NCBI GenBank assembly: GCA_963663275.1
Contig: OY760183.1
Span: 960,001 to 1,024,000, forward strand
Reading direction: 5' to 3'
From: Chloroflexota bacterium
GTDB lineage: Bacteria > Chloroflexota > UBA11872 > VXOZ01
Length of the DNA stretch: 64,000 bases
Part shown: positions 50,941 to 55,267 of the stretch, piece after piece
How positions within the stretch are numbered: position 1 is the stretch's first letter
Layout of the letters: every line of letters starts with the position of its first letter
Notes under the pieces: model-generated
The model's input: only the letters and a program-made list of their open reading frames with translations
What the model was told of the DNA's origin: nothing
Databases searched by the model: none
Made by a program: the position numbers and the translations under genes

Positions 50941-51037
50941 CCCTCTCGGCGCCGGCGCGGCCTACAGTGTCCCAGGGGATCGCTCTGATGTAGCCGCGGC
51001 GAAATCATCGAGCGGCGCCGCCAGGCGGAAGCGCACC

Positions 51038-51679
51038 ATGCACCTACGTTTGCTTATCGCCCTCGCGGCTTTCTTGATGGTGATCGCCTGCGGGTCCCCG
51101 GATGAAACCGGGCCGGCGGCTACGGCTGTGGCTGAGACGCCGGCCACGCCGGAGACTGCGGCCACGCCGGAGACCCCGGCCAAGCCGGAGCCTACCGCCG
51201 CGAAGCCCACGCCCGCGGCCGCGGTTCCCACGCCCTCCGCCGAGACCCTCATCATGCTGCGAGACCCGCTGGACGAGCCGGAGTACTACTGTGTGGACGT
51301 GGCCGGCTTTGGCAGCAATCTCAACCTGGATCGCCCGTTGCAAGCGCACACCTGCAAACCCGGCGCCGACGACGAACTCTTCATCTTCAACTATCCCGCG
51401 CCGGGCCAGTTCTACATGGAACCCTACGACGTGTGCCTGGAGGCGGGCGACGGGGCGCTCTACGTCCGCGCCTGTTCGGACGCGCCCAACCAGCGGTTTG
51501 CGCTGAGCGCGGACGGCGCAATCCAGGCGCAGGGCACCGACCTCTGCCTGGCCGTGCCGGCCGGCGACGGCGAGCCGGCGGGCGGCAGATCTCACTTGCG
51601 GCGCGACCTGCTGCTGCAACCCTGCGCCGACGCCGCGCCGAACCTCTCCCGCTGGCTGCTGCCCGGCCCCAGTCCCTGA
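51038..51679 (+). CDS. Ricin-B (beta-trefoil) lectin-like lipoprotein
   Basis: Lipobox VIAC, Pro/Ala/Thr linker, YCVDV, CLEA, NQRF, LCLAV. Confidence 0.7.
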   Translation: MHLRLLIALAAFLMVIACGSPDETGPAATAVAETPATPETAATPETPAKPEPTAAKPTPAAAVPTPSAETLIMLRDPLDEPEYYCVDVAGFGSNLNLDRPLQAHTCKPGADDELFIFNYPAPGQFYMEPYDVCLEAGDGALYVRACSDAPNQRFALSADGAIQAQGTDLCLAVPAGDGEPAGGRSHLRRDLLLQPCADAAPNLSRWLLPGPSP

Positions 51680-51980
51680 GGGGACCTTTGCATAACTCTG
51701 TCATTCCGGCGAAAGCCGGAATCCAGACCGCATTTACAACTAAGAATAGCCAGTTTTCAAGCCTTTACACCCCCATCCCAACCTTCCCCCTCAATGGGGA
51801 AGGGGTTATGCAGAGGTCTCCTAAGGGGGCCTTTGCGTTACGCTGCCGAACAGCGCGAACCGGGCGCGGTCGGCGTCGATTTCCCCCCTCACCCCGGCCC
51901 TCTCCCGCAGGGAGAGGGAGTTTCTCTCTTGCAGCCCCCATGCCAGGGAGAGGGGGTTTTCTTGAGCCTGCCGCCTCCGT

Positions 51981-52010
51981 TTGACAGGCCGCCGCCGTCC
52001 CTGCTACTAT
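51981..52010 (+). promoter_or_regulatory. Sigma70-type promoter of the aroF operon
   Basis: TTGACA, 18 bp, TACTAT, with an extended -10 TG. Confidence 0.8.
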
Positions 52011-52066
52011 GCATTCGGTTTCAGGCGCGCCTGTTGGGCGCGCAGCGTGGAAAAAGGAAATTGCGG

Positions 52067-52126
52067 GTGTTACGCAGCGTCTTCGCGTACTATTATCTGT
52101 TTATTGAGCCGGAGGGACCGGCTTGA
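52067..52126 (+). CDS. Putative attenuator leader peptide MLRSVFAYYYLFIEPEGPA
   Basis: RBS AAAGGA, GTG start (alternative TTG at 52061), TTC-GCG-TAC-TAT-TAT-CTG-TTT cluster upstream of DAHP synthase. Confidence 0.75.
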   Translation: MLRSVFAYYYLFIEPEGPA

Positions 52127-52182
52127 GCAGATGCGCCTAGTCCCCAGGGACAACGCGAACGCAGAACACACCCTCCGGCGAT

Positions 52183-52218
52183 AGCAGAAAGTGACAAACG
52201 CTTTCTGCTTTTTCTTTT
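52183..52218 (+). terminator. Intrinsic terminator (attenuator) in the aroF leader
   Basis: AGCAGAAAGTG-ACAAA-CGCTTTCTGCT followed by TTTTCTTTT. Confidence 0.85.
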
Positions 52219-52349
52219 GCAGTCTGAGGAGGCATTGCACCGACAAGACCGCGAAATGGGAGTTTGGGAAATAGACTCCACCGTACAGACAAGAGCGCAG
52301 CAGGAAGCGCCGCAAAGCAACCAATGGAGAGGAAACCAGGAGCAGGGAC

Positions 52350-53399
52350 ATGATAGTCATAATGCGCACCGACGCCACCCCGGAGCAGATTGCCGCCGTC
52401 CGGCAGCGGATCGAGGACGGCGGCGTAGAGTCAACCGTCAGCCAGGGCGTCCACAAGACTGTGATCGGCCTTATCGGCAAGCGGCCGCCCGGTATACTGG
52501 AACAGGTCCAAGGCATGTCGGGTGTTGAAATGGTGGTGCCCGTGGACAAGCCGTACAAGTTCGCCGCCCGCACCGAGGGCGGCGCCGACACCCACATCCG
52601 GGTGGGGAACGCGACCATCGGCAGCAACGAGATTGCCGTCATCGGCGGCCCGTGCAGCGTGGAGAGCGAGGAGCAAATCATCGCTACCGCCGAAGCCGTG
52701 AAGCAGGCCGGCGGGCACATCCTGCGCGGCGGCGCGTACAAGCCGCGCACCTCTCCCTACAGTTTCCAGGGCATGGGCGTGCAGGGGTTGGAATTGCTCC
52801 GCGCCGCCTCCGACGCCACGGGCCTGCCGCTCATCACCGAGGTGATGGACCCCCGCCGGGTCTCGCTGGTGGCCGAGTACGTGGACATCCTGCAGATCGG
52901 CGCCCGCAACATGCAGAACTTCACGCTGCTGCAAGAGGTGGGCGCCACGGACAAGCCGGTGCTGCTCAAGCGGGGCATGGCGGCGTCGATCGAAGACCTG
53001 CTCATGTCCGCCGAGTACATCATGGCCGCGGGCAACATGCGCGTGATTCTGTGCGAGCGCGGCATTCGCACCTTCGAGACCGCCACCCGCAACACGCTGG
53101 ACCTCAGCGCCATACCCGTGATCAAGGAACAGTCGCATCTGCCCGTGGTCATCGATCCCAGCCACGCCACCGGCAGGTGGGAATTGGTGAAACCGATGGC
53201 GCTGGCCGCGGTGGCCGCCGGGGCCGACGGCCTGATGATCGAGGTGCACCCGAATCCGGAGCAAGCCCTCTCGGACGGCGCGCAGAGCGTTACGCCCAAG
53301 CGCTTCTTCGACATCATGGACGCCATTCGCAAGGTGGCGGACGCCGTGGGGCGGGAACTCCCGGCCGCCACGGCGGAGATGGAAGCCGCCGCCACGTAA
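52350..53399 (+). CDS. aroF: DAHP synthase class I-beta with an N-terminal regulatory domain
   Basis: [51 protein letters not shown]. Confidence 0.95.
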
Positions 53400-53429: not shown

Positions 53430-53978
53430 GTGAACGCCTGGGTGCGCATCATCGGCGAGGATGAAGCGGAAGGCGCGCTGCGCGCCGCCTACCAACAGCT
53501 TCTCGGCGAACGGCCGCGCGGCCGGGCGCCGGACTTCCTGCGCCTGCACAGTCTCGTGCCGCGCGCCATCGTGCCGCTGGCGCAACTGCACAAGGCCATT
53601 GCCTACGGTCCCGGCGAGTTGACCCGGGTGCGGCGCGAACTCATCGCCACGGTCGTTTCCGCCACCAACGGCTGCGCGCTCTGCCAGGAACTGCACGGGC
53701 GCCTGCTCCTGCGGCGCATGCGGGACGAGGCGCTGGTGGCGCAGGTGCAGCGCGACTTTCGCGCCGCGCCGCTGGCCGCGGCGGACCGCGCCATGCTGGA
53801 GTACGCCGTGAAACTCACCACCGCGCCGGCGTCCGCCACCAGCGCGGACGTGGCGCGGCTGCGCCGGCTGGGCTTTAGCGACGCCGCCGTGGTGGAAATC
53901 GCGACGCAGACGGCGCTCTTCAACTATCTCAACCGCGTCATCCAGGGTCTCGGCCTGGGAGAACCCGCCGCGCCATGA
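53430..53978 (+). CDS. AhpD/carboxymuconolactone decarboxylase-like peroxidase-related protein
   Basis: RELIATVVSATNGCALCQELH, FNYLNR. Confidence 0.88.
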   Translation: MNAWVRIIGEDEAEGALRAAYQQLLGERPRGRAPDFLRLHSLVPRAIVPLAQLHKAIAYGPGELTRVRRELIATVVSATNGCALCQELHGRLLLRRMRDEALVAQVQRDFRAAPLAAADRAMLEYAVKLTTAPASATSADVARLRRLGFSDAAVVEIATQTALFNYLNRVIQGLGLGEPAAP

Positions 53979-55267
53979 AACGCATCCAGCCGCTCGCCCA
54001 TCCCGTAAACGCCGCCGTCACGCTGCCCGGCTCCAAGAGTTACACCAACCGGGCGCTCATCATCGCCGCGCTCGCCGACGGCGTTTCAACACTGCGCCAG
54101 GCGCTCTTCAGCGACGATACGGTCTACATGTGCCAGGCGCTGCGCGCGCTGGGCATTCCGGTAGCGGCGGATGAGGCCGCCAGCACGTTTACGGTGGACG
54201 GCCAAGGCGGCGCCGTTCCCGCCGGCCGGGCCGACCTCTTCGTCGGCAACTCCGGCACCAGCGCGCGCTTCCTGACGGCGTTGGCCGCGCTCGGCCGCGG
54301 CCGCTATTGCGTGGACGGCATCCCGCGTATGCGCGAGCGCCCCATGGCGCCGCTGCTCGCCAGCCTGCGCCAACTGGGCGGCAACGTCCGTTCGCGCTTC
54401 GAAAACGGCTGCCCGCCGATTGAGATTGCGGCAGACGGGCTGCCCGGCGGCGCCGCGCACATGGCCGGCGACCGGAGCAGCCAGTACTTCAGCGCGCTTC
54501 TCATGGCCGCTCCCTACATGCGGGAAGGGCTGGACCTCACCGTGCAGGGACGGCTGGTCCACGGGCAGTACGTCGAGATGACCATCAAGAGCATGGCGGA
54601 CTTCGGCGTGGCGGCGACTGCCGAAGAAGGCCGCCGCTTTTGCGTTGCGCCGGGCCAACGCTACCGCGCCCGCGCCTACGACGTGGAGCCGGACGCTTCC
54701 GCCGCTTCCTACTTCTTCGGCGCGGCGGCCCTCACCGGCGGCACGATCCGCGTGGAGAATCTCGGCGCCGGGTCGGCGCAGGGAGACCTGGCGTTCGTGG
54801 ACGTGCTGGCGGCAATGGGCTGCGCGGTGGAGAAACGCGCCGGCTACGTGCGCGTGACGGGACCCGCCGCGCTGCGGGGCGTAGACGTTGACATGGGCGC
54901 GCTCTCCGATACGTTCATGACCCTGGCCGCGCTGGCGCCGTTCGCGGAAGGGCCCACCGTCATTCGCGGCATCGCCCACACCCGCCTGCAGGAGACCGAT
55001 CGGGTGAGCGCCACCGCCCGGGAATTGCGCAAGCTGGGCGTCGCCGTGACGGAGCGCGACGACAGCCTGCGCATCGAGCCGGGCGTGAAGCATGGCGCTA
55101 CCATCGACCCGCACGACGACCACCGCATCGCCATGAGCTTTGCGCTCATCGGCTTGCGGCTGCCCGGCGTGGTCATCGCCAATCCGGAATGCGTCGCCAA
55201 GACGTTCCCCGATTTCTTCGAACGCCTGGCGGCAGCCACCGCTCCCGCCCACCCCACACCGGCCTAG
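53975..55267 (+). CDS. aroA: EPSP synthase
   Basis: LPGSKSYTNR, GNSGTSARF, SSQYFS, RLQETDR, DDHRIAMSF, KTFPDF. Confidence 0.96.
   Translation: MKRIQPLAHPVNAAVTLPGSKSYTNRALIIAALADGVSTLRQALFSDDTVYMCQALRALGIPVAADEAASTFTVDGQGGAVPAGRADLFVGNSGTSARFLTALAALGRGRYCVDGIPRMRERPMAPLLASLRQLGGNVRSRFENGCPPIEIAADGLPGGAAHMAGDRSSQYFSALLMAAPYMREGLDLTVQGRLVHGQYVEMTIKSMADFGVAATAEEGRRFCVAPGQRYRARAYDVEPDASAASYFFGAAALTGGTIRVENLGAGSAQGDLAFVDVLAAMGCAVEKRAGYVRVTGPAALRGVDVDMGALSDTFMTLAALAPFAEGPTVIRGIAHTRLQETDRVSATARELRKLGVAVTERDDSLRIEPGVKHGATIDPHDDHRIAMSFALIGLRLPGVVIANPECVAKTFPDFFERLAAATAPAHPTPA

Follow-up and report, generated by a model that had tools for sequence, protein, structure and literature searches.

On a 64,000-nucleotide (nt) stretch of a Chloroflexota genome (GTDB lineage UBA11872; VXOZ01; assembly GCA_963663275.1, contig OY760183.1), which we call the window, lies an operon for aromatic biosynthesis whose first gene, aroF, is preceded by a leader with a short upstream open reading frame (uORF), a conserved helix and an intrinsic terminator. 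An earlier reading of the letters alone, made without database searches and referred to here as the sequence-only reading, had marked out the promoter, the ribosome-binding site, the uORF and the terminator, and had named the genes aroF, ahpD and aroA; the four elements lie exactly where it placed them, and the gene names agree with the family assignments given below. Absent from its account was the local protector hairpin at 52094-52133. The features, in window coordinates and with distances also in base pairs (bp), are as follows.

51981..52010 (+): putative sigma70-type promoter, TTGACA-18-TACTAT with an extended TG, matching the consensus at 10/12 positions
52053..52058 (+): Shine-Dalgarno-like AAAGGA, 8 nt upstream of the GTG
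52067..52126 (+): leader uORF from GTG to TGA, 19 amino acids, VLRSVFAYYYLFIEPEGPA and stop; an open and conserved frame
52088..52102 (+): putative sensing codons Tyr-Tyr-Tyr-Leu-Phe, the last Phe being TTT at 52100-52102, 8 nt before the conserved helix
52094..52133 (+): protector hairpin (52094-52102:52125-52133 and 52106-52112:52118-52124), the fold predicted for untranslated RNA in this genome
52097..52101 (+): genus-specific extension of 5 bp, predicted to be able to pair with 52183-52187
52108..52116 (+): 5' strand of the conserved helix, GCCGGAGGG, in antiterminator position and backed by covariation
52171..52179 (+): 3' strand of the conserved helix, CCCTCCGGC, ending 3 nt before the terminator stem
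52183..52218 (+): intrinsic terminator recognised by its sequence pattern, an 11-bp stem (52183-52209) and a U tract, -14.8 kcal/mol
52350..53399 (+): aroF, DAHP synthase of the PRK08673 subfamily (E 2e-150, over the cut-off)
53430..53978 (+): peroxidase-related AhpD-like gene (TIGR01926)
53975..55267 (+): aroA, EPSP synthase (TIGR01356, over the cut-off)

In our view transcription is very probably attenuated at this leader by a ribosome that senses aromatic amino acids, and it seems fairly probable that the antiterminator works by abutting the terminator, without any sharing of sequence. The promoter is the sole promoter-like site within 51000-53000 (one found against a shuffle mean of 0.2), and the U tract of the terminator runs to 52218, 131 nt upstream of the aroF ATG at 52350. 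A TTGACA-17/18-TAnnnT match is present in all 17 leaders of the genus, as is a comparable purine run ahead of a GTG that stands 19 codons before the stop.

Conservation was followed in a sample of the class, in which 90 genomes were searched and the gene was matched in 86; leaving out G058, whose match lies at a contig end, and adding G014 gave 89 upstream regions from 86 genomes. The uORF, the helix and the terminator occur together in 83/89 of these aroF upstream regions, which excludes a chance origin of the leader; the class genomes are mutually related and do not count as independent trials. Seen by genome, the leader is conserved in 84/86; at one locus (L109) the motif is present and the terminator damaged, while the five loci that lack the leader come from two genomes (G028, G087). 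The aromatic frame possesses both a start and a stop in 83/83 class leaders, compared with 11/83 and 25/83 for the other two frames, the frame having been chosen by its aromatic content and one leader (L090) corrected by hand. Members of the genus end it at a single position with any of the three stop codons (TAA 14, TAG 2, TGA 1). Within the codon run of class leaders, Tyr, Phe and Trp interchange and synonymous changes occur too; the six-codon stretch that ends with the final Phe holds at least two aromatic codons in 83/83 leaders, and this Phe is encoded by TTT, again in 83/83. From the run F-A-Y-Y-Y-L-F highlighted by the sequence-only reading, YYYLF holds in 17/17 genus members, and the first Phe (codon 6) recurs in only 2/17.

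The helix pairs 52108-52116 with 52171-52179, and across 81 distinct leaders 683/729 of its cells are paired, versus 254-376 with the partner slid; five of its nine pairs have changed on both sides in a 40-sequence alignment. Its geometry was taken from folds of the free RNA in which the helix end was left unfixed, with L210, where no terminator was found, omitted. The helix starts 6-9 nt past the last Phe codon (8 nt in 61/83 leaders) and ends 0-4 nt ahead of the G of the terminator's GCAG core in all 83, a geometry seen in just 42/830 shuffled intervals. All 83 class leaders place it where a signal-dependent structure would be expected, <5 nt upstream of the terminator and without overlap, and among 29 leaders measured in other classes the helix ends 0-7 nt before the core in 26 and overlaps it by 1-5 nt in three. 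Between the last Phe and the core lie 57-88 nt, a path reduced to 7-13 unpaired nt once the hairpin loops out; from the stop codon to the core there are at least 26 nt in all class leaders measured. Since the thr, phe and his antiterminators of Escherichia coli start at a similar distance (9-11 nt), we regard the helix as holding the antiterminator position without overlapping the terminator.

Aligning the relatives for codons and stems, a check named by the sequence-only reading, thus speaks for its central idea: an aromatic uORF in 83/83 leaders, conserved frames, variation among stop codons, exchange of Tyr, Phe and Trp and a covarying helix all point to an attenuator in which stalling at aromatic codons would lead to read-through. 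Its proposed switch fared differently. The complementarity between 52096-52116 and 52171-52188 on which that switch was built does exist, but it consists of two parts, a 9-bp core (52108-52116:52171-52179) off the terminator and a separate 5-bp extension, formed by codons 11-12 (52097-52101:52183-52187), on it. The two folds said to exclude each other do so for the extension only, whereas a single fold accommodates both the core and the terminator. An antiterminator that shares sequence with the terminator is found only in part, for the first Tyr and Phe6 and in this genus.

Ribosome positions were modelled with masks of 9 nt or 12 nt, with the thr, phe, trp, his and leu leaders of E. coli as controls; among these, 9-11 nt separate the last sensing codon from the antiterminator in thr, phe and his, and 17 nt in trp, beside a mask floor of 9. 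Under the 9-nt mask the helix is predicted to form at every aromatic stall in 82/83 leaders and in 0/83 two codons later, and with the ribosome at the stop it is absent from the models of 34/34 leaders of the families f1, f2, f3 and f5. In the naked RNA of the genus the main helix wins in only 4/17 leaders. The controls show what an overlap switch looks like in this model: while the ribosome stands on their sensing runs and the 3' arm has yet to emerge, 0.42-0.88 of the terminator 5' arm is sequestered, as against 0.00-0.13 (12-nt mask) or 0.04-0.42 (9-nt mask) at the stop. In the window leader the corresponding values under the 9-nt mask are 0.84 at Phe6, 0.45 at Y8, 0.15 at Y9, 0.04 at Y10, 0.02 at F12 and 0.56 at the stop, and the family means likewise show no stall-versus-stop switch in arm sequestration. 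Ribosome-masked folding thus yields no overlap switch in the window, unlike in the five E. coli controls, and overlap at codons 10-12 is further disfavoured because the invading strand lies underneath a ribosome that has halted on Tyr9 or Tyr10. We had also considered the equilibrium fold of the full leader, in which the terminator is present in every state, as evidence against a switch, and rejected it because four of the five E. coli controls behave likewise.

Taken together, these results suggest the following course of events. A ribosome would start on the uORF, as its conservation implies, and while charged Tyr- and Phe-tRNA are plentiful it would cross the 5' strand of the helix and reach the stop, which lies 59 nt upstream of the terminator stem. 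In the models the helix is then prevented and the terminator folds, so that transcription would end near 52215; untranslated RNA is predicted to fold the protector and, in this genome, to allow termination too. A stall on any Tyr or Phe codon would instead cover the lower strand of the protector and leave 52108-52116 just beyond the leading edge of the ribosome. Thus freed, this strand could pair with 52171-52179 and loop out about 55 nt, a step predicted by the models for a helix that covariation supports. The hairpin lying against the terminator and the stalled ribosome would then together block termination sterically, a joint action that we propose because of two precedent papers and the short looped-out path. 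For a stall at the first Tyr, the 5-bp extension may strengthen this effect in the present genus. As a whole, an aromatic attenuator with an abutting, steric antiterminator is the explanation to which we lean, if with some reserve.

The reach of the leader extends well beyond aroF of one class. A covariance model search of 150 phylum genomes, with the best 25 candidates per genome scored, gave matches at E <= 0.05 in at least 49/150 genomes, including 16 from the class. We examined the 39 listed matches other than class aroF leaders, with genes assigned by family scan, tblastn or adjacency: 31 precede a DAHP synthase (of the AroFGH subfamily in four), including all 28 with E < 0.001, and the remaining ones comprise two before pheS, one before tyrS, one before a CmoA-like gene and four without a leader. 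The helix sequence varies between classes while the layout is kept, and this leader scaffold, which tracks gene function in standing before two DAHP-synthase subfamilies, pheS and tyrS, has apparently been reused, which suggests a portable module. The pheS leader, whose terminator is near-identical, is the only further copy within this genome (G000 C1:1175934-1176059 (-), locus L190) and is found in 11/11 genus genomes (also L213-L223); its Phe is invariant in all eleven, this genome having Phe only and the ten others Trp as well. The tyrS leader reads Trp-Tyr and is devoid of Phe, and in the class itself no terminator lies within 1 kb upstream of tyrS at 30/30 loci, eight of which are weak matches below the family cut-off.

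Several further leaders were seen along the way. One before a DAHP synthase in G211 (L302:5380-5620 (-)) carries a Trp-Ala-Ser-Trp run beside the helix, and the gene downstream of this Trp-only leader is not followed by trp genes. In G107 (L205/L303) a Tyr/Phe leader of the same type precedes the CmoA-like methyltransferase gene, which is followed by citrate synthase. T-box-like leaders, recognised by eye from the consensus, stand before trpE at 24/30 class loci (L272-L301) and before pheS at 7/8 g5 loci (L234-L241), so that T-boxes and leader peptides appear to share aromatic regulation in the class. Aromatic uORFs with terminators also precede DAHP-synthase genes in gut Bacillota (L053, L061-L064 and L066; Oscillospiraceae, Clostridiales, Clostridia), where the antiterminators, judged by eye, overlap the terminator in the classical manner.

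Other observations concern the end of the uORF. In the families f4 and f6, the codon preceding the uORF stop is ATG, GTG or TTG in 43/49 leaders (e.g., L028, L084, L123); one more leader has ATT there, and four have a start-like codon one codon earlier. Lying in the top loop of the hairpin, this codon is possibly a start-stop element that parks a ribosome. By eye, the uORF closes with an overlapping ATGA in six others (L176, L177, L180, L182, L183, L193), which could allow the restart of a second ORF of 6-7 codons ending in the hairpin loop.

Around the leader, the closest named relatives of the DAHP synthase belong to Chloroflexota metagenome-assembled genomes (84-91% identity), and the AhpD-like gene stands between aroF and aroA at 17/17 genus loci and at 0/19 loci from other class families within a 1.5-kb flank. 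The spacer 52219-52349 measures about 140-155 nt in the genus, longer than in most of the class, and in many genus members opens with a conserved GGAG and then a start-like codon. Upstream of the promoter, at 51750-51960, are short palindromic repeats of the CCCTCTCCC..GGGAGAGGG type; similar elements recur across the genome and mimic terminators.

An important part of the assessment is what weighs against an attenuator with an abutting, steric antiterminator, and here the notion of 'tug-of-war' riboswitches (Bushhouse, Fu, Lucks; bioRxiv 10.64898/2026.06.17.733018) serves as a yardstick. In this preprint a hairpin on its own had a weakening effect on none but the least stable of the tested terminators, so that in our case the ribosome would have to provide the steric bulk, and stronger terminators are stated to go with shorter spacers, a rule for which we see no correlation (rho 0.18, p 0.52 for spacer versus terminator strength over 15 genus means, which cover a narrow range of strengths). 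A sequence-independent steric model does not explain the near-invariant GCAG..CTGC stem or the TTT codon. The modelling has its own difficulties: the 12-nt mask keeps the helix at the last-Phe stall in 43/83 leaders, and a mask laid over one strand of the helix abolishes the helix partly by construction of the model. With the ribosome at the stop, the helix re-forms behind it in 40/49 models of f4 and f6, and hence their 'off' state calls for something further to be assumed, for instance the start-stop element of the loop, where a lingering ribosome could hold the hairpin open. Naked RNA of f2-f6 forms the helix in most leaders, and therefore the device may be leaky when no ribosome is present. 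Finally, the match between amino acid and gene is not clean, given the Trp codons of the pheS leaders in 10/11 genomes.

Against this background, we consider unlikely, though worth weighing, a classical overlap attenuator in which a ribosome halted at the first aromatic codon leaves enough of the codon strand open for pairing with the terminator 5' arm, stacked on the 9-bp helix, so that the terminator is blocked by this pairing. The extension 52097-52101:52183-52187 does form in the model with Tyr8 in the A site, the codon:arm duplex of the genus surpasses its synonymous-recoded controls by 3.1 kcal/mol and its shuffled ones by 3.6 kcal/mol, and the invariant TTT and purine-rich GCAG arms are compatible with some pairing. 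Class-wide, on the other hand, the duplex beats synonymous recoding in 36/81 and shuffled arms in 25/81 leaders, and arm sequestration in the window declines from Y8 to F12 and is higher at the stop, as given above. One leader, L149, has a UGG codon together with an arm changed to GACCGG, yet its duplex is equalled or beaten by 10% of unrelated terminator arms; with those two control counts, and with the compensation in L149 a single case, codon:terminator pairing was rejected as a class-wide antiterminator. Rather less likely still is an override invisible to nearest-neighbour folding, be it a triplex or pseudoknot of the U-rich codons, the helix and the conserved GCAG/CTGC stem, or a protein such as NusG, NusA or another factor that would read this stem. 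It would account for the GCAG..CTGC stem, which barely varies across the phylum although only 7/109 terminator arms of this genome contain GCAG, and for a TTT codon in 83/83 leaders where the long ORFs of the genome use TTC 17461 and TTT 4915 times; common descent from one leader could explain the shared stem, L149 keeps the layout with a different one, and by eye no conserved loop sequence is able to form a pseudoknot with the arm. All 83 U tracts contain TTNTTT, which we take to be the NusG pause motif, and we give this no weight because the terminator finder selected U-rich tails.

Two further ideas seem to us very improbable. By an inverse logic, the nascent peptide would arrest the ribosome at high free Tyr or Phe, as in TnaC, and the helix would help the terminator, with which it can coexist and stack. 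The recurring pattern Y-[YF]-x-F-x-x-P, with Pro at +3 in 74/83 leaders, would fit such an arrest, were it not that the CCG of the helix provides this Pro codon, which falls out of frame in f5, that the part of the peptide ahead of the run is free to vary in length as well as in sequence, and that no alternative antiterminator is seen after ribosome passage. Improbable to the same degree is that the uORF goes untranslated and the leader acts purely as an RNA motif, of T-box-like or protein-binding type, or else as a constitutive terminator. The GTG start and modest ribosome-binding site, and the T-box-like leaders at trpE in the class, lend this some colour; against it stand the conservation of frame, start and stop in 83/83 leaders with all three stop codons in use, the lack of any Rfam family at gathering scores in the window (11 leaders of relatives gave one chance-level match), and the T-box antiterminator consensus, which this leader lacks and which can be seen ahead of trpE in the same genomes. 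A T-box riboswitch was rejected on the last two counts, and a tug-of-war riboswitch with an aptamer likewise, the window having no Rfam match and the upstream structure being a variable hairpin inside or behind the uORF.

If we return to the attenuator with an abutting antiterminator, its kind is known and its new part is the antiterminator that does not overlap. Through this leader, many Chloroflexota would have an amino-acid sensor on their shikimate pathway, beside the T-box-like leaders of trpE in the same genomes. In textbook leader-peptide attenuators the antiterminator overlaps the terminator, and prediction based on overlap would miss or misread this leader family. Should an abutting, ribosome-gated hairpin suffice, >100 natural variants would be at hand for studying the competition of RNA structure and a ribosome for the exit channel of RNA polymerase, and the sensor would be modular, with codons and terminator swappable independently of each other. 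Exit-channel competition would in that event have a second natural use and, within the reach of our searches, its first one coupled to translation. The chances appear even to us that such 'tug-of-war' attenuators occur phylum-wide in Chloroflexota, with a stalled ribosome and not a ligand licensing the abutting hairpin, and with no base-pair competition.

The sequence-only reading had not recognised a Tyr-run attenuator on shikimate genes in this lineage as described, and this holds in part. Our literature searches, which left the supplements of motif papers outside and met sources partly in excerpt, returned no description of the leader in Chloroflexota and no leader-peptide attenuator without overlap; excerpts of PMC4833913, PMC3766115, PMC11109978 and PMC11857589 contain nothing on such a leader. 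The kind itself is known from Corynebacterium glutamicum and predicted in Acholeplasma. A Shewanella table also lists aroF with a Tyr-tRNA attenuator (PMC2659441). In C. glutamicum, aroR-aroF is a Phe-Tyr-Phe leader attenuator on aroF (Neshat et al. 2014, as described in PMC4046766, PMC11802643, PMC7356990) and shares with the present case a short leader, adjacent Phe/Tyr codons, a DAHP-synthase gene and a stall that leads to read-through; it belongs to another phylum and, according to a review, responds to Phe but not Tyr limitation, whereas the codons here are Tyr-Tyr-Tyr-Leu-Phe. The Acholeplasma uORFC-13-1 motif is a predicted Phe uORF on aroF (Brewer et al. 2021, PMC8632094). By its description it resembles our leader in having a Phe-codon uORF and an adjacent terminator upstream of aroF, and differs in being computational and confined to Acholeplasma and unassigned environmental sequences.

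Separately, Lopatovskaya et al. (2010) reportedly predict attenuators in Chloroflexi and are said to list non-standard hairpin arrangements, which may anticipate part of our results. The leaders thrL, pheL, trpL, hisL and leuL of E. coli share with ours a uORF, a run of cognate codons, a protector, a terminator and a helix about 9-11 nt past the last codon (17 in trp). Their antiterminator takes most of the terminator 5' arm, whereas the helix here stops 0-4 nt short of the GC core in 83/83 class leaders.

Precedent for the proposed blocking step comes from two directions. One article reports repression of a terminator by a ribosome that halts within a few nt of it, and says that 10-15 nt of mRNA have to be free (PMC4824070); in our leaders the looped-out path from the last Phe leaves 7-13 unpaired nt. 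In the tug-of-war preprint, structures directly upstream of terminators suppress termination in a way consistent with exit-channel competition, termination returns step by step as the spacer grows from 0 to 4 nt, and natural ZTP riboswitches of this type have spacers <5 nt (bioRxiv 10.64898/2026.06.17.733018); 'leader peptide', 'attenuator' and 'Chloroflex' do not occur in its main text. What sets the two systems apart is a ligand-bound aptamer there and a hairpin gated by a stalled ribosome here, together with a spacer-strength rule that is not seen in our leaders, while what they have in common is a signal-dependent structure just upstream of the terminator, held at a spacer of <5 nt and free of overlap.

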